Source: an uncultured delta proteobacterium (lineage in GTDB: Bacteria; Myxococcota; Myxococcia; SLRQ01). From it: DNA of 32,067 bases. Of the stretch, positions 1-31,877 are shown one piece after another (the stretch's first letter is position 1; each line of letters starts with the position of its first letter). Made by a program: the position numbers and the translations under genes. The stretch is taken from positions 1 through 32,067 of the forward strand of contig CAVSGM010000012.1 in assembly GCA_963727485.1 (NCBI GenBank). The letters are read 5' to 3'. Under the pieces are notes generated by a model. The model did not search any database and had not been told where the DNA came from. It saw nothing but the letters and a program-made list of their open reading frames with translations.

Positions 1-204
1 TCTCCCGGGCGTTGGCGCGGCAGCGGCGGGGGAAGCTCGGGGAACGCATCCCCTCGCGATTCCTGGAGGAATCTCCCGGAGCACACCTTCGTGACCGTGG
101 ACACCGCGGTCCCCACCGGGCCCCTGACCGGCGACGATCTCGAGGCCGGGAAGGCGTTCCTGGCGCAAATCAAGGCCTCCCTCGGCGCCGGGGCGGACGA
201 GTGA
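1..204 (+). CDS. 3' end of UvrD/Rep/PcrA-family helicase (partial; apparent +1 frameshift at 69-73)
   Basis: Frame 3 reads SRALARQRRGKLGERIPSRFLE, like the SF1 helicase C-terminal 'R...G....PSRFL.E/D(I/L)P' motif. Removing one A from GAATC (69-73) continues DLPEHTFVTVD...GADE to TGA at 202-204. Confidence 0.7.
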   Translation, partial: SPGRWRGSGGGSSGNASPRDSWRNLPEHTFVTVDTAVPTGPLTGDDLEAGKAFLAQIKASLGAGADE

Positions 205-240
205 GGGCCGGCCCCGGTGTCGATCCTCGGGTCAACGGGC

Positions 241-269
241 TTGACGTGGGGTCCGGAGGCCCTTATACA
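241..269 (+). promoter_or_regulatory. putative sigma70 promoter for rplM-rpsI
   Basis: TTGACG (241-246), 17-bp spacer, TATACA (264-269), upstream of rplM. Confidence 0.55.
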
Positions 270-323
270 CGCGCCTTTCCCGGCCCCCGGTCCGGGCCAC
301 CCGTCTATTGCGGAGCAGCACCC

Positions 324-758
324 ATGTCCACGCCGAGCCTCAAGCAGGGAGACGCCGAGCAGCGCTGGCTGCTGATCGACGCCGAGGACCTCGTCCTCGG
401 TCGCGCCGCCTCCCAGATCGCCAGCATCCTGCGCGGGAAGCACAAGCCCCAGTACACCCCCCACGCCGATGCCGGCGACCACGTGGTCGTGGTGAACGCG
501 GCCAAGGTTCGCCTCACCGGCCGGAAGTGGGCCGACAAGATGTACTACCGGCACACCGGCTATCCCGGTGGCCTGGTCGAGCGCACCGCCTCGGAGCTGC
601 GGGACAAGAAGCCCGAGGACCTCATCTACAACGCCGTGCGGCGCATGCTCCCCAGGAGTCCCCTGGGCCGGAGCCTGATGCGCAAGCTCCGGGTCTACCC
701 CGGCGCCGAGCATCCGCACGTCGCGCAGCAGCCCGAGCCCTTCAAGCTCGCCTACTAG
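324..758 (+). CDS. rplM: 50S ribosomal protein L13
   Basis: ATG at 324 after GGAG. Motifs [53 protein letters not shown]. Confidence 0.98.
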
Positions 759-775
759 GTTCCAGGAGCATCGTC

Positions 776-1171
776 ATGCAGGACACCCCGGTCTTCAGCG
801 CCGTCGGCCGCCGCAAGGAGTCGGTCGCCCGCGTCCGCGTCTCCCCCGGAGACGGCAAGCTCTTCATCAACAAGCGCCCGGTCGAGGAGTACTTCCCCTG
901 GGAGACCGGCAAGGCCCAGGTCCGCGCGCCCCTGGTGGCCACGGAGATGGAGGGCAAGGTCGACGTCCACGTGAACGTGCGCGGCGGCGGGCTCACCGGT
1001 CAGGCCGGCGCCATCCGCCACGGCCTCTCCCGGGCCCTCATGGCCTACGATCCCGAGCTCCGGGCCCTCCTCAAGAAGGCCGGCTACGTGACCCGGGACG
1101 CCCGCGGCGTCGAGCGGAAGAAGTACGGGCAGCCTGGCGCCCGCAAGAAGTTCCAGTACTCCAAGCGGTAG
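776..1171 (+). CDS. rpsI: 30S ribosomal protein S9
   Basis: ATG at 776 after [35 protein letters not shown]...[10 protein letters not shown]. Confidence 0.98.
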
Positions 1172-1195
1172 GCGTCTCGCCGCCGTCGCCCGGTG

Positions 1196-1260
1196 CCCCC
1201 AGACGGGGCGCGCCGGGCCCCTCGTGCACCCGGCCTCGGCCGGGTGTACGCGTCTGGGGG
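1196..1260 (+). other. structured 3' element after rpsI (three-way junction, no U-tract)
   Basis: CCCCCAGACG (1196-1205) pairs perfectly with CGTCTGGGGG (1251-1260). These enclose GGGC/GCCC and a 12-bp hairpin at 1223-1250. Confidence 0.45.
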
Positions 1261-1323
1261 ATCCGCCCCTCGGCTGGAGGCCCGATGGTGAGGGGGTGGG
1301 TGGATGTGCTACACGCACCCACC

Positions 1324-3846
1324 ATGCCCACCCGACGCCTGCCGACGCCGCTGGTCCTCCTCCCCGCCCTGCTCCTCGCCGCCGCCGGCTGCGGGAAGGC
1401 CGCCCCGGGCCGCTGCACCTCGAGCGCCCAGTGCGACGGGGCCCGGACCTGCGTCGACGGGACCTGCCAGGACCTGCCCAAGGACAGCGACGGGGACGGG
1501 ATCCTCGATTCCAGCGACAACTGCCCGGAGGTGGCCAACCCCGACCAGCGGGACGAGGACGGCGACGGGATCGGCGACGCCTGCGACGACGACCGGGACG
1601 GCGACGGGGTGAACAACCCGGTCGACAACTGCCCGGACACCGCCAACCCCGACCAGGCGGATCTCGACCAGGACGGGATCGGCGACGCCTGCGACAACAG
1701 CTTCGACGACGACCACGACGGGATCCCCAACGGGACCGACAACTGCCCGACGGTCGCCAACCCCGACCAGGCGGACCAGGACGGCGACGGGACAGGCGAC
1801 GTGTGCGACCCGGACGTCGACGGCGACGGGATCCTCAACGGCGCCGACAACTGCCCGGTGGTGGCGAACCCCGACCAGAAGGACTTCGACCACGACGGCA
1901 TCGGTGACGCCTGCGACGACGACTGGGACGGCGACGGGGTGAAGAACACCTCGGACAACTGCCCCTGGGTCGCCAACCCGGGCCAGGCCGACGGCGACGG
2001 CGACGGGGTGGGGGACGCCTGCGACGACACCGGCACCCGCACCGGGCTCCCGGTGAACACCGACTGCAAGCTGAAGATCCACAAGACCTTCCAGACCGCG
2101 AGCGAGTGGTCGTGGCCCGGGACCCAGACCCTGCCCGCGGCGCTGGCCGGCCGGACCCGGGTGATGATGACCCCGGTGGTCGGCGACGTGGACGCCGACG
2201 GGGTGACCGACGTGGTCTTCGTGGCCCACGATCTCATCAACGGCAACCAGCTGGGGCCCGGGGCCCTGGTGGTGGTCGACGGCTCGACCGGGCAGACCGA
2301 GACCATGGTCGACCCGGCGGGCAACCATCTCGCCGCCGCCGGCAACATCGCCATCGGCAACCTCGACGGGAACGCCGCCCACCGGATGCAGATCGTGGCG
2401 CTTCGCTACAACGCCCCGGTGGGCCCGGTGGTCCTCGACGCCGCCGGCCACGTGCTGTGGAGCTGCAACGACACCGGCAACTGCGGCGGCGGGTGGATCC
2501 ACGGGGGCATGAGCTGGGGCGGGCCCGAGCTCGCCGACCTCGACGGCGACGGGATCCCCGAGATCGTCTACGGCGCCGACGTCTGGACCCGCAACCCCGA
2601 CGGCAGCTACGCGCTCTCCTGGGAGGGCACCGGCGGCGCCGGCGACGCCGGGGTGGGGCCGCTGTCGGTGGTCGCCGACCTCGACGACGACGGCAGCCCG
2701 GAGGTGGTCACCGGGAGCACCGCCTACCACGCCGATGGCACGGTGATGTGGCGCTCGGGGCTCACCGACGGCTTCGTCGCCGTGGGGAACTTCAACAGCG
2801 ATCCCTACCCCGAGGTGGTGGTGGTCACCCACGGCGACCTCTACCTCCTCGATCACACCGGGGCGATCCTCTGGGGCCCGGTGCGCCTCCCCGGCGCCGA
2901 CACCGCCACCACCACCACCGTCGGCGGCGCGCCGACCATCGCCGACTTCGACGGCGACGGGCAGCCAGAGATCGGCGTCGCCACCGCCGGGGCCTACGCG
3001 GTCTACGACACCAGCGGCGAGCCCCTGTGGCAGAAGACCACCCAGGACTACTCCTCGGCGGCCACCGGCTCCTCGGTCTTCGACTTCGAGGGCGACGGGT
3101 GGGCGGAGGTCGTCTACAACGACGAGCAGTACCTCCGGGTCTTCGACGGCGCCACCGGCCAGACCCTCTTCGAGCAGCCCAACTCCACGGCCACCGCCTA
3201 TGAGTACCCGGTGATCGCCGACATCGACGGGGACCACCGGGCGGAGATCGTCGTCGCCGCCAACCCCTACGGGCAGGTGCAGAACACCGGCGTCACCGCC
3301 TACGGCGACTCGAGCTGGGTCGACACCCGGCCCATCTGGAACGAGCACGCCTACCACGTGACCAACGTGATGGCCGACGGCACCATCCCCGCCCACGCGC
3401 TCCCCTCGTGGAAGCCGGCGAGCTTCGACGGCTGGCAGGTGGGGGACTTCGGCGGGAGCTACCGGGCGAACGCCTCGGCGCCGCCCACGGGCTTCTTCGA
3501 CCCGGCGGCGGACCTGGCGGTCACCGGCGCCGCGGTGGACCTCAGCGCCTGCACCGGCGAGGTGGCCCTGCGGATCTGGGTGGACAACGTGGGGGCGGCG
3601 CAGGTCCCCGCGGGCGTCACCGTGGACCTCTACCGCGGCGCCACCATCGACCCCACGAACAAGCTGGCGAGCGTCACCACCACCGCGGCCCTCGACCCGG
3701 GGATGGGCGAGCGCGTCGCCTTCCACGTGAGCGCGCCGGGGGCGCCGGGGCCGATGCTGGTGGTGGTCGACGACGGCGGCACGGTGAGCGAGTGCGGGGC
3801 GCTCGCCAACGACCGCCTGGTGGTCCAGGACGTCGGCTGCCCCTGA
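1324..3846 (+). CDS. lipoprotein with thrombospondin type-3 Ca-binding repeats, FG-GAP/VCBS beta-propeller and C-terminal CARDB-like domain
   Basis: Lipobox LLLAAAGC. Five D.DGDG..D..DNCP..ANP.Q.D.D.DG.GDACD units. Repeated ADLDGDG.PEIV/ADFDGDGQPEI motifs. C-terminal ADLAV...VDNVGAA.VPAGV.V.LY...VVVDD.G.V.EC. Confidence 0.85.
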   Translation: MPTRRLPTPLVLLPALLLAAAGCGKAAPGRCTSSAQCDGARTCVDGTCQDLPKDSDGDGILDSSDNCPEVANPDQRDEDGDGIGDACDDDRDGDGVNNPVDNCPDTANPDQADLDQDGIGDACDNSFDDDHDGIPNGTDNCPTVANPDQADQDGDGTGDVCDPDVDGDGILNGADNCPVVANPDQKDFDHDGIGDACDDDWDGDGVKNTSDNCPWVANPGQADGDGDGVGDACDDTGTRTGLPVNTDCKLKIHKTFQTASEWSWPGTQTLPAALAGRTRVMMTPVVGDVDADGVTDVVFVAHDLINGNQLGPGALVVVDGSTGQTETMVDPAGNHLAAAGNIAIGNLDGNAAHRMQIVALRYNAPVGPVVLDAAGHVLWSCNDTGNCGGGWIHGGMSWGGPELADLDGDGIPEIVYGADVWTRNPDGSYALSWEGTGGAGDAGVGPLSVVADLDDDGSPEVVTGSTAYHADGTVMWRSGLTDGFVAVGNFNSDPYPEVVVVTHGDLYLLDHTGAILWGPVRLPGADTATTTTVGGAPTIADFDGDGQPEIGVATAGAYAVYDTSGEPLWQKTTQDYSSAATGSSVFDFEGDGWAEVVYNDEQYLRVFDGATGQTLFEQPNSTATAYEYPVIADIDGDHRAEIVVAANPYGQVQNTGVTAYGDSSWVDTRPIWNEHAYHVTNVMADGTIPAHALPSWKPASFDGWQVGDFGGSYRANASAPPTGFFDPAADLAVTGAAVDLSACTGEVALRIWVDNVGAAQVPAGVTVDLYRGATIDPTNKLASVTTTAALDPGMGERVAFHVSAPGAPGPMLVVVDDGGTVSECGALANDRLVVQDVGCP
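1483..2030 (+). repeat. intragenic TSP3 coding repeats (~105-110 bp period)
   Basis: Recurrent GACAACTGCCCG...GCCAACCCCGACCAG...GGCGACGCCTGCGAC units. Confidence 0.85.
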
Positions 3847-3864
3847 ATCCGCGCGGGCGCCCTG

Positions 3865-3893
3865 TGTTACAGTGGGTCGTGACCCTCGTCACA
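3865..3893 (+). promoter_or_regulatory. extended -10 promoter overlapped by CRP/FNR-family-like box upstream of the pilT paralog
   Basis: TG-T-TACAGT (3865-3873) followed by CGTGA-N6-TCACA (3878-3893). Confidence 0.45.
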
Positions 3894-3931
3894 CAGGTGC
3901 GCACCCCTGCGCACCCGGAGGCGCCCCCCAC

Positions 3932-5167
3932 ATGGAGCTGAACGACATCCTGAGCGTCGCCCTGCGCGGTGGCGCGTCCGACATCCACCTCAAGGCCGGC
4001 CTCCCCCCGATGTTCCGGGTCGATGGCAGCCTGGTGCCCCTGAAGGACGCCCGCCGGCTGCCTCCCGAAGAGATCAGCCGCATGGCCTTCGGGATCATGA
4101 ACAACTTCCAGAAGGAGCGGTTCAAGGAGTTCAACGAGATCGATCTCGCCTACGGCGTCCCCGGTCTCGGCCGCTTCCGCGTCAACATCTTCCAGCAGCG
4201 CGGCACCATCGGCATCGTGCTCCGGGTGATCCCCTTCCGGATCCAGAGCATCGAGCAGCTGGTGCTCCCCCCGGTGCTCCAGAAGATCGCCATGCACGAG
4301 CGTGGGCTGATCCTGGTCACCGGCACCACCGGCTCGGGGAAGTCGACCTCGCTGGCGGCGATGATCGACCACATCAACACCCACCGCACCTGTCACGTGA
4401 TGACCATCGAGGACCCCATCGAGTTCCTCATCCGTGACAAGCGCTCGATCATCAACCAGCGCGAGGTGGGCGTCGACACCATGAGCTTCGGCCAGGCGCT
4501 CAAGAGCGCCCTGCGCCAGGACCCCGACGTCATCCTCGTCGGCGAGATGCGTGACCTGGAGACCATCGAGACCGCGCTCACCGCGGCCGAGACCGGCCAC
4601 CTGGTGCTCTCGACCCTCCACACCCTGGACGCCACCGAGACCATCAACCGCATCATCTCCGCGTTCCCGCCCTACCAGCAGAAGCAGGTGCGCCTGCAGC
4701 TCGGCGCGGTGCTCAAGGCGGTCATCAGCCAGCGGCTGGTGCCCAAGGCCGACGGCCGGGGCCGGGTGCCCGCGGTCGAGGTCCTCATCGCCACCCACAT
4801 GGTGCGCGAGCTGGTCGAGGACAAGGACCGCACCAAGGAGATCGCCGACGCCATCAGCAAGGGTCACCAGTCCTACGGGATGCAGACCTTCGACCAGTCG
4901 CTGATGTTCCACCTGAAGAAGGGCATCATCTCCTACGAGGAGGCGCTGCGGCAGGCGTCGAACCCCGACGACTTCGCCCTGCGGCTCTCGGGCATCGCCA
5001 GCACCTCCGACGCCAAGTGGGACGACTTCGAGGCCATGGGGGGCGGCGGCACCGCCCCGGTCCCCGGGACCGCCGACTTCGGCTCCAACACCCAGCGGCC
5101 CGCGTCCGAGCCGCCGAAGCCCGCGCCCGCCGGCGAGGACGACGACTTCAAGATCGAGCGGTTCTGA
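3932..5167 (+). CDS. pilT: PilT/PilU-family type IV pilus retraction ATPase (stand-alone paralog)
   Basis: ATG at 3932 after GGAGG. ASDIHL, RFRVN, Walker A GTTGSGKST, TIEDPIE, ALRQDPDVILVGEMRD, AAETGHLVLSTLHT, GMQTFDQSL. Confidence 0.9.
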   Translation: MELNDILSVALRGGASDIHLKAGLPPMFRVDGSLVPLKDARRLPPEEISRMAFGIMNNFQKERFKEFNEIDLAYGVPGLGRFRVNIFQQRGTIGIVLRVIPFRIQSIEQLVLPPVLQKIAMHERGLILVTGTTGSGKSTSLAAMIDHINTHRTCHVMTIEDPIEFLIRDKRSIINQREVGVDTMSFGQALKSALRQDPDVILVGEMRDLETIETALTAAETGHLVLSTLHTLDATETINRIISAFPPYQQKQVRLQLGAVLKAVISQRLVPKADGRGRVPAVEVLIATHMVRELVEDKDRTKEIADAISKGHQSYGMQTFDQSLMFHLKKGIISYEEALRQASNPDDFALRLSGIASTSDAKWDDFEAMGGGGTAPVPGTADFGSNTQRPASEPPKPAPAGEDDDFKIERF

Positions 5168-5206: not shown

Positions 5207-6319
5207 CTACTCCATCAGGGCGTGGCCCAGCTCCTCGGCGGTCTGGAGCCGGTCGGCCGGGTCCTTGCGCAGCAGCTCGTGGGCGATGCGCGCGAGGTGG
5301 AAGTCGACGCCGGGGTTGAGGCTCGCCACCGGCGGGGGCTCGGTCTCCATGAGCTCCTTCCACAGGTCCAGGGGGTGGCGGGCGAGGAACGGGGGCCGGC
5401 CCGTGAGCAGCTCGTAGAGGATGACGCCCAGGGAGTAGAGGTCGGCGCGCTGGTCGACCCGCTCGCCGGCGGCCTGCTCCGGGGCCATGTACCGGTAGGT
5501 GCCCACCACCCGGCCGGCGTCGGTCACCTCGGCGGCGTCGGCCAGGGCCTTGCACAGGCCGAAGTCCATGATCCGGGCGTCGCCGTCGACGTCGACGAGG
5601 ATGTTGGAGGGCTTGAGGTCCCGGTGGACCAGGCCCCGGGAGTGGACGTAGGCCAGCCCCGAGCACACCTGGGTGAGCACCTCCTGGAGGCGGGCGACGC
5701 GCATGGGGCCGTTGAGGACGGTGAGGTCCGCGGCCGCGGCGAAGTCCGGGAGCTCGTAGGGCTCCGGGGGGTGGGCCAGGTCGGCGAAGGGCAGGTCCAC
5801 CGAGGGCGCCGGGCCCGCCGAGCCCACCTCCACCGGCCCCGGGTCGCTGGGCTCGTGGCCCAGGAGGACGTCGGAGTCGGGCTCCTCGAGCCAGGCCTCG
5901 AGGTTGAAGGCGCGGGCGGCGCTCCCGGAGAAGCTCCCCGAGAAGCTCCGGTCGAACGAGTCGTCGAGGCGCACCCCGGGGCTGGAGGTCGACGACCAGC
6001 TCGAGGGGTCCTCGGTGACCAGGTCGAGGTGGCGCTTGATGTCCACCCCGTCGATGAGCTCCATGGCGAAGTAGGGCATGTCACCGGCGATGCCGGCGTC
6101 GATGACCTTGACCACGTAGGGGTGGTCGAGGAGCGCCAGGGACTCGAACTCCCGGGTGAAGCGCAGCGCGGCGCGGCTGTCGCCGGCCGGGGTCCCGGTG
6201 AGGAGCTTGACCGCGACCTCCTCGTCGGTGCGGTCGTCGAGGGCGCGGTACACCACCCCCAGGCCTCCCTTCCCGAGGAGGTCGAGGATTCGGTAGGGAC
6301 CGAGCCGTTCAGGACGCAT
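5207..6319 (-). CDS. cytoplasmic Hanks-type Ser/Thr protein kinase with large internal insertion
   Basis: LGKGGLGVVY, VAVK, HRDLKPSN, DFG, GTYRYMAPE, DLYSLG. About 100 extra residues between subdomains V and VIa. No TM segment. Confidence 0.92.
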   Translation of the reverse strand: MRPERLGPYRILDLLGKGGLGVVYRALDDRTDEEVAVKLLTGTPAGDSRAALRFTREFESLALLDHPYVVKVIDAGIAGDMPYFAMELIDGVDIKRHLDLVTEDPSSWSSTSSPGVRLDDSFDRSFSGSFSGSAARAFNLEAWLEEPDSDVLLGHEPSDPGPVEVGSAGPAPSVDLPFADLAHPPEPYELPDFAAAADLTVLNGPMRVARLQEVLTQVCSGLAYVHSRGLVHRDLKPSNILVDVDGDARIMDFGLCKALADAAEVTDAGRVVGTYRYMAPEQAAGERVDQRADLYSLGVILYELLTGRPPFLARHPLDLWKELMETEPPPVASLNPGVDFHLARIAHELLRKDPADRLQTAEELGHALME

Positions 6320-12441: not shown

Positions 12442-13602
12442 ATGCCGAGCTTCGAGGTCTTCATCCCCGCCGCCCCGGAGACGGGGTTCGATCTGACGTT
12501 CCGTGTCGACGCCGACAACTGGATGGCCGCGCTCAAGACCGGCCTAGACCAGGTCGGGCTCCAGGGCCACCGGGGCAACCTCCTCTGCGACATCAAGCCC
12601 ACCGGGATCGACGTCACCGATCCCGGCTCGGGGAAGGTGTTCCGGATCCGCGAGCTCGCCGAGGGCGAGGCCCCGGCGGCCCCGGCCCCGGCGGCAGCGG
12701 CAGCGGCCCCGGCGGCAGCGGCCCCGGCCCCGGCGGCAGCGGCCCCGGCGGCCCCGGCGGCGGTCCCCGAGCCCCCCGAGCCCAAGACCGAGGTCGTGGC
12801 CGCGCCCGAGCCGGCGTTCCCCAGGACCGCGCCCCCGGCCGAGCCGCCAATCCCGGCACCGCCCCAGGACACCGAGCCGTCCCTCCCCGCGGCGCCCCCC
12901 ACCGTCGCCCAGCCCTCGCCCCAGTCGGCGGCCCCGGCCCCCCAGCCCCCGCCGCCGCGGCCCCCCTCCAAGCGCTTCAGCCCGCCGCCGCACCACAGCG
13001 ACACCGAGGTCCGCTCGGTGAGCCGCGTGGCGCAGCGGGCCCCGACCCCCGCCGCCGCCATCGGCCGGGCCCAGTCCCCGGGGGGCTCCTCCCAGGAGGA
13101 CGTCCTCGCCGAGCTCTTCGAGCGGGTGCAGCGGATCTACGACGCCAAGGACGCCGACGCGGCCCTGGGCTTCGTCCTCGACCTCGCCATGGAGAAGGTC
13201 CCCGCCGAGAGCGGCTCCGCCTACCGCGCCGACATCTCCAGCCGGATGGTGCGCTTCGTCGCCGCCCGGGGCCCCAAGGCCGACGAGCTGATGCGCCTCG
13301 CCCCGGCGGTCCCCGTGGGCACCGGGCTGGTGGGCGTGTCGGTGGAGCAGGGCGTGGGGCTGGCCATCAGCGACGCCGACCAGGACCCCCGGTTCTTCCG
13401 CGCCGTCTCCGACCGCCTGGGCTACGAGACCCGCTCGGTGATCACCGTGCCCATCCAGCGCGAGGGCCAGGTCATGGGGGCCCTCCAGCTCATCAACCGC
13501 CGCCAGGGCAGCACCTTCAGCGAGTCGGACCTCGCCATCGTCGACTACCTGGGCCGGGAGTGCGCCGAGTACCTCCGCGCCACCGGCGAGGTCACCGCCT
13601 AG
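12442..13602 (+). CDS. GAF-domain protein with small N-terminal domain and Pro/Ala-rich linker
   Basis: ATG after GGGAG. C-terminal GTGLVG...ISDADQDPRF...GYETRSVITVPI....VMGALQLINRR..STFSESDL is a GAF signature. Confidence 0.85.
   Translation: MPSFEVFIPAAPETGFDLTFRVDADNWMAALKTGLDQVGLQGHRGNLLCDIKPTGIDVTDPGSGKVFRIRELAEGEAPAAPAPAAAAAAPAAAAPAPAAAAPAAPAAVPEPPEPKTEVVAAPEPAFPRTAPPAEPPIPAPPQDTEPSLPAAPPTVAQPSPQSAAPAPQPPPPRPPSKRFSPPPHHSDTEVRSVSRVAQRAPTPAAAIGRAQSPGGSSQEDVLAELFERVQRIYDAKDADAALGFVLDLAMEKVPAESGSAYRADISSRMVRFVAARGPKADELMRLAPAVPVGTGLVGVSVEQGVGLAISDADQDPRFFRAVSDRLGYETRSVITVPIQREGQVMGALQLINRRQGSTFSESDLAIVDYLGRECAEYLRATGEVTA
12670..12762 (+). repeat. low-complexity GCCCCGGCGGCAGCG-type tandem repeats (APAAA linker)
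   Basis: Visible direct repeats encoding APAAPAPAAAAAAPAAAAPAPAAAAPAAPAA. Confidence 0.7.
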
Positions 13603-15667: not shown

Positions 15668-16514
15668 CTACCGGGTCCGCCCGCAGTAGCCCTGGAAGAT
15701 GTAGGTGGGCGACGGGGTCAGGGGCGACTGCTGGAAGTCCCCCTGGTCGTCGACGAGGATGGTGAACGAGAATCCCCACCGCCACCGAGTCGCAGCCGCC
15801 GTAGAAGTTGGGGACCACCCAGGCGGCGCAGAGCCCCAGGGAGTCGAGGTCCGGGCCGCCCGAGGTGAACTGGCGCTGCTTGTAGGCGTCGTCCATGGCC
15901 AGGAACACCGGCCGGCCGCCGACGGTGGGCGGGAGGGTGGAGACGTCGGCGACCTGGGTCGCCTGGGACCGGAAGGTGAGGGCGGCGAAGGTCTGCGCGT
16001 CGGCCACGCTGACGATGGGCGCCACGTCCGGGCCGAAGGTGCCGTGGAGGCCCTGGTCGGTGTAGCCGCCGGTGAGGTTCTGCTTCATGGGGCCGACGAA
16101 GCTGCACTTGGGCACCCCGTAGGTCCCGGGGATGCCGTAGGGGTCGGTGGCCTTGAACAGGAGGAGGTAGGGCCCCGAGCCGGCGGCGGTGACGTCGGTG
16201 TAGCCGTCCTTCTTCAGGGCCGCGGCGGTGGTGGTGGCGTCGAGGGCGCAGGGGAGGTCGCGGGTGACCACCGCGGCGAGCTTGGCCTCGGTGGCCGCCA
16301 GAAGGGTGCCCGAGGGGAGCGTCTGGGGGTCGGGGAGCGAGCCGAGGTCCTTCTGGTCGTAGGCCGCGTGGACAATCTGGGCCGCGGTGAACGTGGACCC
16401 GCACGCCGAGAGGGAGAAGGTCTCGAGGTTCTTGTAGTCCGGCGGCGTCGCACCGCAGGCGGCCAGGCTGGCCAAGCCGGCCAGGACGAACAGGAGGGGC
16501 AGGGCCCTGCGCAT
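15668..16514 (-). CDS. hypothetical lipoprotein (~281 aa; apparent +1 frameshift at 15770-15774)
   Basis: MRRALPLLFVLAGLASLAAC lipobox. Removing one base at GAATC restores ...GCDSVAVGISFTILVDDQGDFQQSPLTPSPTYIFQGYCGRTR* with GC3-typical codons and avoids overlap with the convergent gene. Confidence 0.7.
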
Positions 16515-16546: not shown

Positions 16547-17656
16547 TCAGGTCCCCGGGCCCGGGCCCGGGATCCCGGCGAGGGCGAGGACCTTCCGGGC
16601 CAGGGTCGAGAGGGGGACGGCGTCGACGCCGTCGGCCGGCACCCACCGCTTCGCCTCGTAGGCGCCGTCCTCGGTGGGTGGCCCCCGGCGGCGCGGGGCG
16701 ACCTCGAGGGCGAAGACCTCGAGCTTCAGCTCGATGTGGGTGAACACGTGGGTCACCATGCCCAGGCGCCGGCCGGCGCGGGCGGCCTCCTCGGGGATCC
16801 GGGGCGGCTCCCACAGGCCCCCGAGGAGGCCCGTGGCCGGGCGCCGGGCGAGGAGCACCTTCCCGCCGCGGGTGGCCACCGCGCAGAAGGCCCGCTCCCG
16901 GCGCCGGCGCGGGCGGCGGGCCACCTGGGGGAGCTTCGTCTCGCGGCCCTGGCGCCGGGCGAGGCAGTGCGCCGAGACCGGGCAGAGGAGGCAGGCGGGC
17001 GCGGCCGGGGTGCAGACGGTGGCCCCGAGCTCCATGAGGGCCTGGTTCAGGGCAGAGGGATCGCCCCCGGCCTCGACCAGCTCGCCGGCCCGGGCCCAGA
17101 GGGCGGTCTTCACCGGCTTCGACGCCGGGTCCCCCTCGAGGGCGTCGAGGCGCGCCAGGACCCGGATGACGTTTCCGTCGACCAGGGGCACCGGGTCGCC
17201 GAAGGCGATGGAGCGGATGGCCCCGAGGGTGTAGGGCCCGACGCCGGGGAGGGCGGCCAGGGCCGCCGGGTCCCGGGGGACGACGCCCCCGTGCGCCTCC
17301 GCGACCACCGAGGCGGCGCGGTGGAGGTTGCGGCACCGCGCGTAGTAGCCCAGGCCCGACCAGTAGCCGAGCACCGTCTCCAGGTCGGCGGCGGCGAGGT
17401 CGGTGACCGTGGGGAAGGCGGCCATCCACCGGTGGTAGTAGGGCACCACCGTGGCCACCTGGGTCTGCTGGAGCATGATCTCGCTGACCCAGACCCGGTA
17501 GGGGCCGGTGACCGGGTCGGCGGCGTCCCGGCGCCAGGGGAGGTCCCGGGCGTGGCGCCGGTACCAGCGGACCAGGTTGGCGGCGACACGCCGGGCGTCG
17601 GCGGGCGCGGCCTTCGGTGCCCGGGCCCCGGAGGTGGCGGACCGGCGGCCGGTCAA
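16547..17656 (-). CDS. mutY: A/G-specific adenine DNA glycosylase MutY
   Basis: WY..HARDLPWR, PYRVWVSEIMLQQTQV, WSGLGYYAR, LPGVGPYT, VDGNVIRV, NQALMELGATVC..P.C..CP....C (4Fe-4S). TTG start overlaps the upstream stop (TTGA). Confidence 0.95.
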   Translation of the reverse strand: MTGRRSATSGARAPKAAPADARRVAANLVRWYRRHARDLPWRRDAADPVTGPYRVWVSEIMLQQTQVATVVPYYHRWMAAFPTVTDLAAADLETVLGYWSGLGYYARCRNLHRAASVVAEAHGGVVPRDPAALAALPGVGPYTLGAIRSIAFGDPVPLVDGNVIRVLARLDALEGDPASKPVKTALWARAGELVEAGGDPSALNQALMELGATVCTPAAPACLLCPVSAHCLARRQGRETKLPQVARRPRRRRERAFCAVATRGGKVLLARRPATGLLGGLWEPPRIPEEAARAGRRLGMVTHVFTHIELKLEVFALEVAPRRRGPPTEDGAYEAKRWVPADGVDAVPLSTLARKVLALAGIPGPGPGT

Positions 17657-19284: not shown

Positions 19285-21975
19285 ATGGAGACCACGGGCG
19301 CCGCGCGGACCCTCGCCGAGGACGTCCGCGCCCTGGGAGACCTCCTCGGCGAGACCCTCGCCGCCCACGGGGGCGAGGGGCTGCTCGCCGACGTGGAGGA
19401 GATGCGCCTGGCCGCCAAGAGCGCCCGGGAGGCCGGGGACGAGGCGACCCGCGAGGCGGCCCGGGCCGAGCTCGCCGAGGTGGCCGCCCGCCTCGACGCC
19501 TCGCAGGCCGGCGAGGTGGTCCGCGCCTTCGGCCTCTACTTCCAGCTGGTCAACCTCGCCGAGGACGTGGCGCGCACCCGGGCGCTGCGCGCGCGCGAGG
19601 CCGAGGGGCCCGAGGCGGTGGACGAGTCGCTGGCCGCCTGCGTCGCCGAGCTCCACGCCCGCGGCGCCACCCGGGACGAGGTCCTCGCCGCCCTCGGCGA
19701 TCTCCACCTGCGCTTCGTGTTCACCGCCCACCCCACCGAGGCCAGGCGGCGCACCACCGAGCGGCTCCTGGCGCTGGCGCGCCGGGCCCTGGTCGACCTC
19801 GACCGGAGGCGGCTGACCCCCTGGGAGGACGAGGCGACGCGCCGGCGCCTCCGGGCGGCGGTGGAGGCCCTGTGGGAGCACGCCGACGAGCGCCACCGCC
19901 CCCCGGAGGTCCTCGACGAGGTGCGCACCGGCCTCTGGTACTTCGAAACCGTCCTCCTCGACGCCCTCCCGGATCTCCAGCGGCGCCTCGCCGCCGCCGT
20001 CGCCGGGCGCTACGGCGAGGTGGACCCGGCCCGCCTCCCGCTCCCGGTGGGCTTCGGCTCGTGGATGGGCGGCGACCGGGACGGAAACCCCTTCGTCGAC
20101 GCGGACACCACCGAGGCGGCCCTGCGCCTCCACCGGCGCCTGGTCCTCGGGCGCTACCTCGACGACCTGGCGGCGCTCGCCAATCCCCTCGCCGCCGCTT
20201 CGGCCCGGCTCCCGGCGTCCCGGTCGCTCGACGCCGCCCTCGACCGCAACCGCCGCGCCCTCGGCGACGCCGCCGCCGCCCTCGGGGCCCGGAACCCCGC
20301 CGAGCCCCTGCGCCGGCTCCTCACCTTCATGCGCGCGCGCCTGGACCGGGCGCGCACCTTCGCCGCCGGGGCCTACCCGGGGCCCGAGGCCTTCCTCGCC
20401 GACCTCGAAGCGGTGCGGGCCACCCTGCGCCGGGCCCGGGCCAAGGCCCTGCCCGACGACGCCCTCCTCGACCTCATCCTCCGGGTGCGGGGCTTCGGCT
20501 TCGCCCTGGTGGCCCTCGACCTCCGGGAGGACGCCCGGGTCCACCGGCGGGTGGTCGCCGAGCTCCTCGGCGAGGCCGGGTACCTCGAGTGGGACGACGC
20601 GAGGCGCCGGGAGGCCCTCCTGGCCCTGCGCCTCCCCGACAATCCCGCCGGCCTCACCGACGAGGCCCGCCGGCTCCTCGCCCTCTTCGCGCGCCTCGCC
20701 GACCAGCAGGCCCGCTACGGGCCGGCGGCGGTGAGCACCTACGCCATCAGCCACTGCGAGTCGGTCACCGACGTCCTCGAGGTCCACCGCCTCGCCGCCC
20801 TCCACGGCGTCGAGGCCGTGGACGTGGTGCCGCTCCTGGAGTCGAGCCACGCCCTGGCCACCGCCGGCGAGCTCCTCGGCGCGATCCTCGACGATCCGGC
20901 CTACCGGGCCCACGTGGCGCGGCGCGGGGATCTCCAGGAGGTCCTCCTCGGCTACTCCGACTCGGCGAAGGAGGCGGGGATCGCCGCCAGCCGGGTGGGG
21001 ATCCTCGAGGCCCAGCTCGCCGCCGCCGGGGCCTGCGGCACCCGGGGGGTGCGCCTGCGCCTCTTCCATGGCCGCGGGGGCTCGGTGAGCCGGGGGGGCG
21101 GGCCCACCCACCGGGCCCTCCGCGCCCTGCCCCGGGGGGCGTTCTCCGGCGACCTGAAGGTCACCGAGCAGGGCGAGACCCGGGCCTTCCACTTTGGCGA
21201 CCCGGGCCTCGCCAGCCGCTACCTCGAGCGCACCGTGGGCGCGGCGCTGGTGGTCCGCTTCGAGGCGCGCACCGGCGCCGGCACCGGCCCCACCGCCGGC
21301 GAGCCCCACCTCCTGGCCCTCGCCGCCGCCAGCCGCGCCGCGTTTCGCCGCCTGGTCGAGGCCGAGGGCTTCGTCGCGTTCTTCCGGGAGGCGACGCCGC
21401 TGGCCGAGATCGCCGCCCTCAACATCGGCAGCCGCCCGGCCCGGCGCGGGGGCGACCGGGCGCTGGACAACCTGCGCGCCATCCCCTGGGTCTTCGCCTG
21501 GAGCCAGTCGCGGCTCCTGGTCCCCGCCTGGTTCGGGGTGGGCGCCGGCCTCGAGGCCCTCGCCGCCGGCGACGGAGGCCTCTCGGCCCTCACCGGCCTC
21601 TACGCCCGCAGCCCCTTCTTCCAGGACCTGATGGACAACGTCCACATGGCGCTGGCCAAGACCGACGTCCCCATCGCCACCCGCTACGCCGCCCTCTGCC
21701 CCGACCCCGACCGCCGCCAGCGGATCTTCGGCGCCATCCTCGAGGAGCACGCCCGCACCGTGCGCCTGGTCCTCGCGGTCACCGGCCAGGCCGAGCTCCT
21801 GGGCGAGGATCCGGTGGTGCAGCGCTCGGTGCGCCTGCGCAACCCCTATGTCAATCCGCTCTCCTACCTCCAGGTGGAGGCCCTGCGCCGGAGCCGCGCC
21901 GGGGACGCGGCCTTCGCGGCGGTGGCGCGCAGCGCGGTGCGGGGGATCGCCGGGGGCCTGCGGAACACCGGGTGA
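19285..21975 (+). CDS. ppc: phosphoenolpyruvate carboxylase
   Basis: FTAHPTE, GSWMGGDRDGNP, GYSDSAK, FHGRGGSVSRGGGP, TEQGE, LRAIPWVFAWSQ, terminal GLRNTG. Confidence 0.96.
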   Translation: METTGAARTLAEDVRALGDLLGETLAAHGGEGLLADVEEMRLAAKSAREAGDEATREAARAELAEVAARLDASQAGEVVRAFGLYFQLVNLAEDVARTRALRAREAEGPEAVDESLAACVAELHARGATRDEVLAALGDLHLRFVFTAHPTEARRRTTERLLALARRALVDLDRRRLTPWEDEATRRRLRAAVEALWEHADERHRPPEVLDEVRTGLWYFETVLLDALPDLQRRLAAAVAGRYGEVDPARLPLPVGFGSWMGGDRDGNPFVDADTTEAALRLHRRLVLGRYLDDLAALANPLAAASARLPASRSLDAALDRNRRALGDAAAALGARNPAEPLRRLLTFMRARLDRARTFAAGAYPGPEAFLADLEAVRATLRRARAKALPDDALLDLILRVRGFGFALVALDLREDARVHRRVVAELLGEAGYLEWDDARRREALLALRLPDNPAGLTDEARRLLALFARLADQQARYGPAAVSTYAISHCESVTDVLEVHRLAALHGVEAVDVVPLLESSHALATAGELLGAILDDPAYRAHVARRGDLQEVLLGYSDSAKEAGIAASRVGILEAQLAAAGACGTRGVRLRLFHGRGGSVSRGGGPTHRALRALPRGAFSGDLKVTEQGETRAFHFGDPGLASRYLERTVGAALVVRFEARTGAGTGPTAGEPHLLALAAASRAAFRRLVEAEGFVAFFREATPLAEIAALNIGSRPARRGGDRALDNLRAIPWVFAWSQSRLLVPAWFGVGAGLEALAAGDGGLSALTGLYARSPFFQDLMDNVHMALAKTDVPIATRYAALCPDPDRRQRIFGAILEEHARTVRLVLAVTGQAELLGEDPVVQRSVRLRNPYVNPLSYLQVEALRRSRAGDAAFAAVARSAVRGIAGGLRNTG

Positions 21976-24734: not shown

Positions 24735-26464
<1,730 letters not shown>

Positions 26465-26477
26465 GGGGACGCCCACC

Positions 26478-26765: not shown

Positions 26766-26771
26766 CGAGAG

Positions 26772-29462
26772 ATGGCGAAGAAGCGCGTCTACGAGATGGC
26801 CAAGGAGCTGGGCCTCTCCAACAAGGAAGTGGTCGACAAGCTCCAGGCACTGGGGTTCGACGTGAAGTCGCACTCCTCGAGCCTGGAAGACGTCGAGGCC
26901 GATGCGGCGATGTCCCGGATCCGCGGTGAGACCGCCGAGCCGGAGGCGCCGAAGAAGGTCGCGGCGCCGGCGGGCGTGGTCCGCCGTCGCCGGAAGAAGA
27001 CCGCCGGCGACACCGAGGTGGTGACCGAGACCCGGATCGTCCCCGGGGCCCCCCAGGCCCAGGAGGAGGTCGTCCGGACCACCGAGCAGCCGGTGGCCCC
27101 CGAGCCCGAGGAGGTGCCCGCCGAGGTCGCCGCCGAGGGGATCGAGGCCGAGGCCGCCGCCGAGGGCGAGGCCGCCGGTGTCGAGGCCGCCGCCGAGGGC
27201 GAGACCCCGGCCGTCGCCGCCGAGGGCGAGTCCCAGGCCGCCGCCAGCGCCGAGGCCGGCACCAACGGCGGGGCCGCCGCCAAGAGCGACCCGAACCTCC
27301 CCGCCGTCAACGAGGGCGAGGTGGTCAGCGTCGAAGATCGGCTCAAGGAGCCCACGGCCACCCAGGCGGTGGTCATCAGCCGGCCCCTGATCCCGGTGGC
27401 GCCCAAGGTCCCGCCGGCGCCCCGGACCGCCGGTGGCCCCGGCCGGCGCATCGGGCCGGTCAAGGAGTACCAGGTGGTCTCCGACGCCCTCGGCCGCGGC
27501 CGGGAGTTCGTCGACGTCACCAAGGACAAGGGCAAGCGCAAGACCCCAGGCGGCGAGCGCCGCGCCAAGGAGGCCTTCAGCAAGCGCGAGCTGATGACCA
27601 TGGCCCGCTCCCGGGCCTTCGTGCCCATGCGCGGCCGCAAGCGCCGGCCCACCAAGAAGGGCAAGAAGACCGAGGTCACCCAGGCGGCGGCCCACAAGCG
27701 GATCATCCGCGTCGAGGAGACCATCCAGGTCGCCGAGCTCGCCAAGGGCATGGGCGTGCGGCTCACCGACGTCATCCGCAAGCTGATGCAGCTCGGGGCG
27801 CCGGCGACGGCCAACCAGTCCATCGACGTGGAGACCGCGCAGCTGGTGGCCGACGAGTTCGAGTACACCGTGGTGAAGACCGGCATCGAGCTCGAGGACA
27901 TCCTGGAGACCGCGCCCGAGGGCGAGGAGATCGAGGGCGGCGAGTCGCGGCCGGCGGTGGTCACCGTCATGGGCCACGTCGACCACGGCAAGACCTCGCT
28001 CCTCGACTACATCCGCAAGAGCCGGGTGGCGTCGGGCGAGGCCGGGGGCATCACCCAGCACATCGGCGCCTACAGCGTGCCGGTGGGCGAGGGGAGCATC
28101 ACCTTCCTCGACACCCCGGGCCACGAGGCGTTCACCGCGATGCGCGCCCGCGGGGCCCAGGTCACCGACGTGGTGATCCTGGTCGTCGCCGCCGACGACT
28201 CGATCATGCCCCAGACCGTCGAGGCCATCAATCACGCCAAGGAGGCGGGGGTGCCCCTGGTGGTCGCGGTCAACAAGTGCGACCTCCCCCAGGCGAACCC
28301 CGAGCGGGTGCGCCAGGGCCTCACCGAGCACGGCCTCGTCCCCGAGGAGTGGGGCGGCGACGTGATGGTGGTCGACGTCTCGGCCAAGAGCGGCGAGGGC
28401 GTGGACAAGCTGCTGGACGCCGTGAACCTCCAGGCCGAGGTCCTCGAGCTCAAGGCCAACCCCGAGGCGCCGGCCCAGGGCGTGGTCATCGAGGCCAAGG
28501 TCGAGAAGGGCCGCGGGCCGGTGGCCAGCGTCCTGGTGAAGAACGGCACCCTCCACAAGGGGGACGTGATCTTCACCGGCACCCACTACGGCAAGATCCG
28601 CGCGCTCCTCGACGACACCGGCAAGCCCATCAAGGACGTCGGTCCGGGGCTCCCGGCCGAGGTCCTCGGTCTCGACGGCGTGCCCTCGGCGGGGGACAAG
28701 TTCTACACCGCCAAGGACGAGAAGGCGGCCCGGGAGCTGGCGGCCAAGAACGCCGAGAAGGCCCACGTCGAGGGCCTCGGCGGCGACGCCGCCCTCGACA
28801 AGCGCATGAGCCTCGAGCAGCTGTTCTCCGCGATGAAGGAGTCGGAGCAGAAGGAGCTCAAGCTCATCGTCAAGGCCGACGTCCAGGGCTCCACCGAGGC
28901 GGTGATCGGCGCCCTGACCAAGCTGACCACCGAGAAGGTGAAGGTCACGGTCATCCACCAGGGCGTCGGGGCCATCTCCGAGTCCGACGTGATGCTCGCC
29001 GCCGCCTCCGGGGCGGTGATCGTGGGCTTCAACGTCAAGCCCGACGGCAAGGCCCGGAAGACCGCCGACCACGAGGGCGTGGATGTGCGCGCCTACAGCG
29101 TCATCTACGACGCGGTGGACGACGTGAAGGCCGCGATGATTGGCCTGTTGCCCCCCATCCGCAAGGAGCAGTCGGTGGGCCACGCCGAGGTCCGGGAGGT
29201 CTTCCGGGTCAGCGGCAAGGGCACCATCGCCGGCTGCGCGGTGGTCGACGGCAAGGTGCAGCGCTCCGCCCACATCCGGGTGCTCCGCGACAAGGCCTCG
29301 GTCTTCGAGGGGCGGATCGACGGCCTCAAGCGGTTCAAGGAGGACGTCCGCGAGGTGCCCACCGGCATGGAGTGCGGCGTCAGCATCGCCGGCTTCAACG
29401 ACGTGAAGGCCGGCGACGTCCTCGAGGTCTTCGACATCGAGGAGGTGCGGCCCACCCTCTAG
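26772..29462 (+). CDS. infB: translation initiation factor IF-2
   Basis: [12 protein letters not shown]-terminus, [64 protein letters not shown]. Confidence 0.99.
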
Positions 29463-29501
29463 CAGGGGGCCGCATCGGCCCGGAACCCGGGCGCGTCTCC
29501 A

Positions 29502-30104
29502 ATGGTCGTCGGCATCACCCGCGTCAGCCTGGCCCTCCCGGGCAACGACTCCCTGAAGGGCAAGCGCTCGGTGGTGAAGAAGCTCCTGGAGCGGGTGCGC
29601 TCGCGGTTCCACATCTCCGCTGCCGAGGTCGACGCCCAGGACAGCCTCCAGCGGGCGGTCCTCGGGTTTGCCACCGTGGGCAGCGATGGCCGCAAGGTCG
29701 CCACCGTCCTCGAGCGCATGGTCGACTTCATCGACGACGCAGGGTTGGCCCAGGTGGTGGCGGTGGAGCAGGAGACCGTGAACTACGGCGACGACGCCCT
29801 CGGCGAGGATGTGTGGGGGAGCTACGCGGAGAAGTTCGGCGCCGACGAGACCTGGCCCCCGGCGGGGGTGATGCCGGCGCTGGACGCCGGGCCCGCCGGG
29901 GATGCCGACGCCCGTGACGCCACTGACGCCGACGCCGACGCCATCGCCACCGACGCCGGGGAGCTCGCCGACGCCCGGGACGGCGCCGGGTCCGGGCACC
30001 GGGTGCGCATCCGCCCGGGGAGCCTGGGCTTCGGCTCCCGGAAGGCCGTGGACATCCCCGCTCCCGGGGACGCGGCCGCCGACGAGGACGAGGAGGATTC
30101 GTGA
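29502..30104 (+). CDS. DUF503 (YlxP) protein with long acidic C-terminal extension
   Basis: MVVG....L.LP..SLKGKRSVVK....R.RF.IS.AEVD.QD..QRA.LGFA.V. Lies between infB and rbfA. Confidence 0.88.
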   Translation: MVVGITRVSLALPGNDSLKGKRSVVKKLLERVRSRFHISAAEVDAQDSLQRAVLGFATVGSDGRKVATVLERMVDFIDDAGLAQVVAVEQETVNYGDDALGEDVWGSYAEKFGADETWPPAGVMPALDAGPAGDADARDATDADADAIATDAGELADARDGAGSGHRVRIRPGSLGFGSRKAVDIPAPGDAAADEDEEDS

Positions 30105-30563
30105 GCCACCGTACCGCCATGCTGGGTCACGTGATCCAGAGGAGATCACCACCCTCATCCAGCGGGGGAAGCTCAAGGACCCGCGGGTCCACGAGCTGAC
30201 CACCATCACCGGGGTCGACGTCACCGGCAATCTCTCCCTGGCCCGGGTCTACTTCACCGTCCTCGGCGACCAGGCGGCCATCGAGGAGACGGGCCGGGGG
30301 CTCCAGGCCGCCAGCGGCTTCCTCCACCGGCACCTGGGCAAGGTCCTCACCGTGCGCCAGGTCCCGACCCTGGAGTTCCGCTACGACCCCTCGGTGGCCC
30401 AGGGGGAATCGGATCGAGCGGCTGCTGGCGGGCCTGCCGGAGCTGCATGAGGACGCCGCGGGAGATGCGGGGGACGACGCCGAGGCCGAGGCCGACGCCG
30501 GTGCCGAGGCCGATGTCGAGGCCGAGGACGAGGACAATCCTCGAGGGATCCGCCCAGCGGTAG
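30101..30563 (+). CDS. rbfA: 30S ribosome-binding factor A (apparent indels at ~30139, 30406-30410 and possibly ~30537; 3' end uncertain)
   Basis: GTG start overlaps the DUF503 stop. Reconstructed MSHRTAMLGHVIQEEITTLIQRGKLKDPRV..LTTITGVDVTG(D/N)LSLARVYF...GLQAASGFL...LTVRQVPTLEFRYDPSVAQGDRIERLL followed by an acidic tail. Confidence 0.88.
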
Positions 30564-30619
30564 ACGTCCGGGACCGGCCGGCGACGTGCCGGGCGGTGGT
30601 GGGGGCGTTCGGGAGGGGT

Positions 30620-30858
30620 CCGGCGTGCCCGTTTGAATCCGGCGTCGGGGAAGCCCGCACCCGCCCTTGGGCACCGCGCCACACGGCGCCTGAACCCTTC
30701 AGGCGAGGACCCGCCGCGAGCCGGCTCCCCGCGTCCGCATGGGTGATCTCCCCACTCGCCGCCCCTGGAAGAGCTTGCGCGCGGGGCCGGATCCCCCTTT
30801 CCCCAAGGTCTTGGGGTGCCCACATTCCCGATCCGCGGTCCGAATCCTTCACATCCGG
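30620..30858 (-). ncRNA. candidate structured non-coding RNA, unassigned family
   Basis: Four nested long-range stems closing a multibranch core. Outer stems need G-U pairs that form only on the minus strand. No convincing ORF. Confidence 0.4.
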
Positions 30859-30875
30859 GGCCGCGGAAGGATAAT
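30848..30875 (+). promoter_or_regulatory. internal sigma70-like promoter for nrnA-truB
   Basis: TTCACA (30848-30853), 16 bp, GATAAT (30870-30875). GGAGG RBS before ATG 30909. Confidence 0.5.
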
Positions 30876-30908
30876 CTGGCCTTTCCCCACCCTGGCTCGG
30901 GAGGGCAC

Positions 30909-31877
30909 ATGCTTGAGCGGGTCGCGGACCTGGTCCGCGAAGGACGGCGATTTCTGGTGACGATGCATCGGCGCCCGGACGGGGACGCCCTGGGGTCCAG
31001 CCTCGCGCTGGCCTGCGCCCTGCGAGAGATGGGCAAGGACGTGGTCCACTACAACCCGGACCCGGTGCCTACAACCTGCGCTTCCTCCCGGGCGCCAATC
31101 GCATCGTCGACACCGTCGAGGGTGATTTCGACGCCACGCTGGTGTGCGACACCCCTCGCCTCGAGCGCCTCGGCGACGCCCTCCCGGGGGCCCCGGCGCG
31201 GGGCGTGCTGGTGAGCCTCGACCACCACGGCGGCGAGCCCTTCGGCGACGTGAACCTGGTGGACACCGGGGCGGCGGCGGTGGGGGTCCTGGTGTGGCGG
31301 CTCCTCGGGACCCTCGGGCACCCGGTGAGCCGGGAGGTGGCCCACGGCCTCTACGCCTCGAATCCTCACCGACACCGGCTCGTTCCGCTACGACTCCACC
31401 GACCCCGAGTCGCTGACGATCACCGGCGAGCTCATCGCCGCCGGGGTCCGTCCCTGGGAGATCGCCTCCCGGATCTACGAGTCCCAGCCCGCGGCCCGGG
31501 TGCGTCTGCTGGCGCGGGTGCTGGCCACCCTCGACGTCACCCTCGCCGGCCGCTACGCCACCCTGGTGGTCACCCGCGAGATGCTCGACGCCTGCGGGGC
31601 CACCGAGGAGATGCTCGACGGCTTCGTTAACCACGCCCGGGGCGTGGATGGGGTGGAGGTCGCGGGTCTGTTCGTGGAACTGCCGGACGGCGCCTGGAAG
31701 GGCTCGTTCCGCAGCCGCGGCAACGTCGACCTCCGGGCGCTGGGCAGCGGCCTCGGGGGCAACGGCAAGCACAACGCCGCCAGCGCCGTCTTGACCGGCG
31801 ACGAAGCAGCGGTTAAGGACCGGGCGGCGCGCGCCGTGGCCTCACTCTTCGGCGTCGCCGACACCGCCGTGGCCTGA
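30909..31877 (+). CDS. nrnA: DHH/DHHA1 phosphoesterase (NrnA-like nanoRNase/pAp phosphatase); two compensating apparent indels (31068-31069, 31360-31364)
   Basis: MH.RPDGDALGS, then after a shift YNLRFLPG...VCDT...SLDHH, then after GAATC LYASILTDTGSFRY...K.SFRS...GG.G..NAA. Typical position between rbfA and truB. Confidence 0.85.

Follow-up and report, generated by a model that had tools for sequence, protein, structure and literature searches.

The window analysed here, a stretch of 32,067 nucleotides from the genome of an uncultured myxobacterium-like lineage (G000), carries a series of single-base changes that are errors concentrated at GATC, and the same concentration is found genome-wide, far beyond chance. 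The explanation that we consider probable is that these are assembly errors arising from nanopore miscalls of the G preceding a methylated A, with the methyl group likely placed by a stand-alone DpnA-like enzyme encoded on another contig (C1). The footprint would thereby suggest that this lineage methylates GATC and does so with a conserved orphan methyltransferase. A technical error of partial penetrance at GATC had already been proposed in the first-pass annotation, whose quoted sequence words were all found in place except for a CAAATC that starts at 166 rather than at 165.

A second assembled copy of the window sits in contig C3 of the same genome, and contigs from other sequencing runs (X1, X3, and X5) were also compared with the window. 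The two copies are near-identical at 1-260 and from about 20,000 onward, and they are 76-92% identical over 4-18 kb, so they derive partly from different strains. Contigs of the other runs, which have a depth of 3-6 and come from other strains, correct the window at four sites (30407, 31097, 31360, and 31933). Four GAATC words had been suggested to be frameshifts within former GATC sites, and all four were borne out by the C3 copy, the X1 and X5 contigs, and related genomes. Unless stated otherwise, positions refer to the plus strand. At 69..73, an extra A causes a +1 frameshift close to the end of the UvrD/PcrA helicase gene; C3 reads GATC there and keeps the frame, giving SRFLEDLP at the helicase end, and its copy matches Pfam UvrD. 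A nearby GATC at 136..139 is intact in the window and carries an extra T in C3, which is the opposite error direction. The extra base at 15770..15774 frameshifts a minus-strand gene that we take to encode a lipoprotein and that has no Pfam match, and in the diverged C3 copy the gene runs on in the frame that results from dropping one base. In rbfA (Pfam RBFA), the extra A at 30406..30410 is common to the window and C3 and is absent from the X1 contig; four of four relatives align up to this base, one of which goes on in the shifted frame. The extra A at 31360..31364 frameshifts a DHH/DHHA1 (nrnA-like) gene and is absent in C3, while the X5 contig is one base shorter at this position. Another GAATC, at 31932..31936, had been overlooked and results from the loss of a G (31933) from GAGATC, as this G is present in C3 and in the X1, X3, and X5 contigs. 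It should be noted that the frameshifts in the window are not all located at GATC: the DHH/DHHA1 gene also lacks a C within a C run at 31067..31070 that is present in C3 and X1, and rbfA has a further lost base near 30140.

Substitutions of AATC for GATC were found as well. Conserved Asp residues had been proposed to appear as Asn at three such sites, two of which are confirmed by a G in the other copy: 21853..21856 in the PEP carboxylase gene (RNPYV-D-PL; G in C3), where the E. coli enzyme 1FIY has Asp and the maize enzyme Thr, and 31097..31100 in the DHH gene (G in C3 and X1). The third, 30229..30232 in rbfA, is probably an error common to both copies, judging from the Asp found in four of four relatives; both copies read AAT, and the X1 contig has no listed difference at this site, although its alignment to the window starts only 14 bases away. 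C3 also has G at 20182..20185 (PEP carboxylase, Asp read as Asn), 20641..20644 (PEP carboxylase), and 30536..30539 (end of rbfA), all previously missed. Several rare codons at AATC or GATT had likewise been attributed to error. This proved correct for both CAA ATC pairs, at 168..171 and at 25408..25411 (codons at 25406-25411, in what is presumably a nusA-like gene), as C3 reads GATC at each, and it is probably correct for the CCA ATC at 12849..12852, since C3, although diverged here, has CCG ATC at the corresponding offset. The AATC at 16374..16377, which is an ATT codon on the minus strand, may be an error too; it lies in the most error-prone context, with C preceding GATC, and C3 carries a different codon. 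Some rare codons at GATC are probably genuine, which would apply to two of those suspected: the ATT at 29139 (GATT, 29138..29141, in the IF-2 gene), which is the same in C3 and lies within a stretch (29077-29490) showing 0 differences from the X1 contig, and the minus-strand CGA ATC at 6287..6291 in a Ser/Thr kinase gene, which recurs unchanged in the C3 copy (~90% identical there). CGA is not in excess before ATC (16/1370 vs 157/3507).

A plain Markov k-mer ranking placed neither AATC nor GAATC among its extremes, so codon-aware tests were required at the genome level. Discordant transitions between duplicated contigs affect 23 of 486 G/C positions in GATC vs 35 of 32,579 elsewhere (odds ratio 46), and these 23, all of them falling on the G or the C of GATC, display the concentration at one motif and the dominance of G-to-A/C-to-T that characterize methylation-induced nanopore consensus errors. 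When +1 frameshifts were tallied by 5-mer, the top two words were GAATC (87/163) and GATTC (79/163) against a background of 0.73%, while GACTC, GAGTC, and GAACC remained at background and the same words in relatives showed a +1 shift in 1 of 33 cases. Thus, the genome-wide indel enrichment on which the first-pass annotation had staked its proposal is indeed present. The Ile codon ATT is used in 250/12,158 cases after G vs 45/20,085 after C, whereas the close relative G003 shows 2/1,207 vs 2/1,129. CAA is similarly enriched before ATC (43/976 vs 31/4,300), although A-ending codons pooled show no excess before ATC (134/10,843 vs 677/47,378). An apparent Asp-to-Asn error rate of 8% after C can be taken as an upper bound only, given that just 3 of 10 AAT codons flanked by C on both sides align with Asp in relatives; G003, too, uses AAT more often when C follows (6/353 vs 0/409). 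Genomes that lack the C1 enzyme (G020, G004, and G001) have a GC content too low for the codon-context model and provide no comparison. Overall, insertions affect ~1% of GATC sites and substitutions a few percent. Flanking bases matter for both, as substitutions favor C before GATC and insertions favor A (the 5' base being A in 104, C in 38, and G in 23 of 166 insertions); every 3' base occurs, and no longer motif was found around the 166 insertions. This flank dependence would also be expected of a sequence-context bias in basecalling at GATC that operates without methylation, and a G-to-A bias does persist in amplified, unmethylated DNA (bioRxiv 10.64898/2026.01.14.699587). We nevertheless regard such a bias as distinctly unlikely, since the errors are confined to GATC, error-prone positions were called with 99% accuracy from amplified DNA (PMC11610603), and a matching candidate enzyme is present.

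The direction of the errors carries a further signature. In the near-identical parts, the ten GATC differences of the window are all in the plus-strand G-to-A direction, while those of C3 are C-to-T or an extra T with one exception at 21409. Genome-wide, pairs of errors agree in direction in 141/177 cases at <2 kb, 156/217 at 2-5 kb, 214/359 at 5-10 kb, and 314/637 at 10-20 kb, and none of 200 permutations matched the first three distance classes (<10 kb). Insertions agree with nearby substitutions in 69 of 87 pairs, with control codons near 50% and no direction link for ATT lacking a following G (18/40). Direction is therefore common to neighbors within 10 kb and random beyond, as read-strand miscalls would give. 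This pattern bears upon two other explanations. One is real mutation, in which the lineage is losing GATC through a hotspot or avoidance and accumulating pseudogenes. Relatives of family f2 are truly short of GATC (observed/expected values of 0.02-0.58 for 6 of the 9 sampled), G024 has Ile ATT after G in 12 of 18 cases, the ATT at 29139 is common to another run, and GATC decay likely accounts for part of the rare codons. As the source of the changes as a whole, we judge it highly improbable: of the 326 GAATC/GATTC sites that were classified, 166 hold frameshifts, with rbfA, the DHH gene, and UvrD among the genes hit; errors fall at different places in the two copies and run in opposite directions; agreement in direction decays over read length; the contigs of other runs are intact, related strains having GATC at 4 of the sites; and G000 has GATC at 0.91 of expectation. 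The other is a consensus compromise between co-assembled strains yielding indels and substitutions. Despite the diverged duplicate contigs in this bin and the true-looking synonymous changes between the window and C3, we give almost no credence to strain mixing, which provides no reason for a 46-fold targeting of GATC or for one direction per contig. Separately, CGAACG was considered as a second error motif on account of Phe TTT codons preceded by CG and followed by G (76/289), but its sense-strand mirror reached only 9/262 and its direction agreed with GATC errors in 18 of 47 cases, which ruled it out as a read error; CG-CTT and CGA-AAC were rejected in the same manner.

Under the explanation that we favor, methylation-dependent miscalling, the errors concentrated at GATC would begin with reads over G(m6A)TC that are sometimes called AATC, reads of the other strand giving the mirror error GATT. 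At low coverage and with one read direction dominating over a read length, the consensus may take the wrong base, and since one direction dominates over that distance, neighboring errors would agree in direction over ~10 kb. Alternatively, the consensus may retain both bases as GAATC or GATTC, producing a +1 frameshift, and flanking bases govern the rate of either outcome. The earlier reading of GAATC as a compromise between G and A reads is accordingly plausible, apart from the instance at 31933 with its lost G. G-to-A errors at methylated GATC are already a published artefact (PMC11610603). In R10.4.1 assemblies, C-to-T sites trace back to opposite-strand reads in which G is miscalled as A, m6A GATC produces this very signal (PMC11610603), and strand-specific G-to-A errors have been reported at methylated motifs including m6A GATC (PMC11610603; bioRxiv 10.64898/2026.01.14.699587). 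The errors described here resemble these ONT R10.4.1 errors (Hammerhead, PMC11610603) in being G-to-A/C-to-T at GATC, partial, context-dependent, and able to reach the consensus. They differ in that the published studies used reads and amplified controls with a focus upon substitutions, whereas ours were obtained from the consensus alone and include the +1 insertions GAATC/GATTC, no description of which was found in the sections consulted of either source. The half of the genome that was classified contains 166 such frameshifts, which by extrapolation would bring the total of false ones to ~300 genes' worth. These, as well as some erroneous Asp-to-Asn changes, are not to be read as pseudogenes or variants.

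The predicted writer is an orphan beta-class DPPY methyltransferase at G000:C1:13544-14293 (PF01555, 177.6 bits), which provides a candidate for the GATC methyltransferase that had been expected elsewhere in the genome. It carries the DPPY and FxGxG motifs of a beta-class N6/N4 domain, and the DPPY motif goes with m6A. Its overall identity is non-discriminating (47-48% to DpnA-like relatives, 47% to CcrM-like ones). Among its best plasmid matches, at 48-51%, is the second methylase found in Dam-DpnA-nuclease operons, and the best PDB match is CcrM. In an alignment with one CcrM-like protein and two proteins from DpnII operons, judged by eye, the motifs of its two recognition loops (loops defined in PMC6787082), DPPYxLSNGG...G..V.V.KG.WD and PNLxCRxFTHS, match the DpnA-type enzymes of DpnII/LlaDCHI operons and not CcrM. 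DpnA acts on GATC (PMC3812788), and pSRQ700 carries the DpnII-related LlaDCHI (PMC6458302). From these features, the C1 enzyme is predicted to methylate adenine in GATC. Unlike DpnII-type restriction-modification, its locus has no adjoining Dam-like partner or nuclease. In its genomic pattern, the enzyme is comparable to the orphans Dam (GATC) and CcrM (GANTC), being single copy and lineage-wide with no cognate nuclease found, although it falls outside the D12 Dam family, scores 237 bits vs a cut-off of 830 for the CcrM profile NF050803 (covering positions 5-251 of 350 only), and lacks the C-terminal CcrM domain. MutH was not found in the genome, which also encodes four further methyltransferase genes whose specificity is not assigned.

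The first-pass annotation had mapped the errors to the C of GATC and favored a modification there, with a neighboring m6A as the alternative. The modified base is more likely to be A rather than C, because no C5 cytosine methyltransferase (PF00145 or TIGR00675) was matched in this 93% complete genome while the orphan DpnA-like enzyme is present, which also sets it apart from Sau3AI-type GAT5mC systems. We therefore consider it unlikely that the same artefact stems from a modified C, be it m5C as in Sau3AI or m4C. GAT5mC in S. aureus did lower accuracy at G and C, but its signal was weaker than that of m6A GATC and needed a lower cutoff (PMC11610603). The miscalled strand is not separable from the assembly alone, and PF01555, of which the genome has a second member, includes N4 enzymes; the conserved enzyme nonetheless combines DPPY with DpnA-like loops.

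An orthologue of the C1 enzyme was found in 36 of 40 relatives, with different neighbors in 7 of 7 loci viewed, and the DpnII nuclease family (PF04556) in 0 of 41 genomes. A tree of 23 proteins had long unresolved branches and does not settle the origin of the enzyme. We tentatively suggest, as a possibility somewhat short of even, that this myxobacterial class has its own lineage-wide equivalent of Dam, a single-copy orphan G(m6A)TC methyltransferase derived from DpnA, which would be active here according to the error footprint, with carriers ranging in GATC density from ~10 per kb to almost none. The test for agreement in direction would also allow such methylomes to be inferred from deposited consensus sequences alone. 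No description of a myxobacterial GATC orphan enzyme was found in the open-access literature searched, and a word search of the main text of PMC4752239 returned no Myxococc-, Anaeromyxobacter, or Deltaproteobacteria. For another class of Myxococcota, PacBio GATC methylation has been reported in a contig cluster from which MAGs were binned (PMC12772301).

The G000 genome comprises 5.55 Mb in 14 contigs (73% GC, 93% complete), and the window is the entirety of one of these (C12), containing 178 GATC, 26 AATC, 13 GATT, 12 GAATC, and 7 GATTC words. The genome is probably myxobacterial, since one of its genes finds its top named matches in a delta proteobacterium, Archangium, and Myxococcales. The first-pass annotation had proposed that indels are enriched at GATC, and the genome-wide count agrees. 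In the seven main contigs, 2.98 million positions could be classified by a codon-phase model trained on G000 itself, which placed a +1 shift at 87/163 GAATC and 79/163 GATTC sites, the highest and second-highest shares of any 5-mer with ≥100 classified sites (0.73% overall); under the same model, GACTC, GAGTC, and GAACC did not exceed background. In seven genomes of relatives, only 1/33 GAATC/GATTC sites carried such a shift. The insertion rate is ~1% (166 per 15,565 intact classified GATC), and GAATC or GATTC lies inside 173 of the 555 +1 segments, the remainder including gene junctions and other errors. Substitutions leave a similar trace in codon usage: Ile ATT accounts for 250/12,158 codons following G vs. 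45/20,085 following C (2/1,207 and 2/1,129 in the relative G003), and CAA for 43/976 ahead of ATC vs. 31/4,300, while A-ending codons pooled show no excess ahead of ATC in G000. The preceding base matters as well, as substitutions prefer C ahead of GATC (C 189/3,658, A 12/1,535, G 44/4,657, T 5/2,308) and insertions prefer A (104/166). The Phe control codon was also elevated in G000, which stems from an unrelated CG|TTT context: TTT between CG and G reaches 76/289 vs. ~1% elsewhere, a codon-context effect unlinked to read-direction errors.

The window region is assembled a second time within contig C3 of the same genome. The two copies share 99.6% identity over the first kb, 76-93% at 4 to 18 kb, and ≥99% from 20 kb on; across 1-18 kb they are separate strains or species and thus represent strain duplicates within the bin, as do contigs C6, C7, and C10 relative to C1. 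A gene for an 853-aa repeat-rich, probably secreted protein (window:1285-3846) is missing from the C3 copy. The window has AATC or GAATC where C3 has GATC at 70, 168, 20182, 20641, 21853, 25408, 30536, 31097, and 31361, and C3 reads GAGATC at 31933. Conversely, C3 has GATT or GATTC where the window has GATC at 136, 22603, 23716, 25474, 26234, and 27143, as well as at 17480 and 23994 amid other strain differences. Thus, the GATC sites in error are not the same in the two copies and, apart from 21409, those of the window run in one direction and those of C3 in the opposite one. In eight pairs of duplicated contigs (45,481 columns with ≤3 differences per 300), discordant transitions fell on 23/486 G/C positions of GATC vs. 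35/32,579 elsewhere, an odds ratio of 46 (p = 2e-27).

The sites cited in the first-pass annotation were checked individually. The C3 copy restores SRFLEDLP in the UvrD helicase at 69 and, together with a contig from sequencing run X5, the reading frame at 31360; at 15770, removal of one base unites the frames and the diverged C3 uses that frame. The extra base at 30406 is in both copies but absent from a contig of run X1 with otherwise no listed difference over 30216-30444. The correcting contigs from other runs have depths of 3-6 and derive from other strains. For the Asp-to-Asn changes, C3 and X1 both have G at 31097, and C3 has G at 21853 in PEPC (Asp in the E. coli enzyme, Thr in maize); 30229, which is A in both copies and Asp in 4/4 relatives, is a probable error, although the X1 contig lists no difference there, 14 bases from the start of its aligned part. 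The ATT at 29139 and the CGA-ATC at 6287 are instead probably genuine codons, and are the two cited sites opposed to the error direction of the window. Single-base losses away from GATC in rbfA (window:30140) and the DHH gene (window:31067) are ordinary short-run errors; the two frameshifts of the DHH gene compensate each other.

Mutation at GATC was weighed against artefact by comparing error direction pairwise by distance at 595 candidate sites. The share of same-direction pairs fell from 80% at <2 kb to 72% at 2-5 kb and 60% at 5-10 kb, reaching 49% at 10-20 kb, against a permuted share of 52%; none of 200 permutations attained the values of the three shortest bins. A correlation lost over one read length fits a local surplus of one read direction rather than mutation. 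Within 3 kb, direction agreed across classes for insertions (69/87), CAA|ATC (27/35), G|ATT|G (48/75), and C|AAT|C (49/82), vs. 18/40 for ATT ahead of other bases and 33/63, 14/27, 369/682, and 78/184 for control codons. Orthologues of 10 C|AAT|C codons had Asp 3, Asn 6, and Arg 1 times (AAC codons, n=1,146: Asp 48, Asn 874), and this, with the weaker direction values, indicates that the ATT and AAT classes mix errors with genuine codons. Some true GATT is also expected, because GATC is really lost in relatives of family f2: samples of 20-60 kb (L063-L065, L100-L103, L108-L110, and L113, from G024, G036, G038, G014, G005, and G040) show strong depletion in enzyme-carrying f2 genomes (observed/expected 0.02-0.58), with 0.03 GATC per kb in G014 vs. 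9-10 in G003 and G009. Genome-wide scoring of G000, G003, G009, G015, and G007 also found Asp GAT strongly favoured ahead of C (15% vs. 2% ahead of G in G000; 45% vs. 3% in G003), a bias that places GATC at silent positions; in G000, codons for His and Tyr show little such preference.

An artefact at modified GATC is very probable, and m6A is the likely modification. This type of artefact is already published: PMC11610603 describes C-to-T assembly errors as G-to-A miscalls on the opposite read, arising at m6A GATC with a weaker signal from GAT5mC and gone in amplified DNA, and a bioRxiv study reports G-to-A as the main motif-linked error class in R10 data. Searches of G000 (93% complete) for a C5 methyltransferase, a DpnII nuclease, and MutH gave no match. 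On what would be a nanopore platform, the G just 5' of the putatively methylated A may be miscalled, and a local strand excess could lead the consensus to pick the wrong base or retain both.

The anticipated GATC methyltransferase has a candidate in C1:13544-14293 (L011), one of five amino-methyltransferase genes in G000 (two PF01555, one D12, two Eco57I/N6 type), which is predicted from sequence to methylate GATC as m6A and may be the writer of the mark. Its best matches are second methylases of Dam-methylase-nuclease operons (48-51%, 252-256 bits; CcrM-like 207 bits), one of them on the LlaDCHI-bearing plasmid pSRQ700 (PMC6458302). Overall identity is the same to the DpnII-operon and CcrM-like groups, but the gene does not pass the CcrM model, and two loops equivalent to those with which CcrM reads bases (PMC6787082) agree with the DpnII-operon proteins. 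This DpnA-like enzyme occurs in 36/40 relatives (E 1e-30 or better; L036-L054) as a single-copy orphan with varying neighbours, and no DpnII nuclease match was found in 41 genomes. A search of the main texts of freely accessible papers found none on this lineage-wide orphan; the lead to it is new, as are the present instance and a direction test that uses the consensus only. The D12-like (C3:327803, L013) and two Eco57I/TaqI-like genes (C2:949659, L078; C2:1075743, L077) are of adenine type, and G000 showed no further error motif attributable to these three. The second beta-class methyltransferase (L012:2088-2095; C1 near 1012000) has its own DPFxG motif frameshifted at a GAATC.
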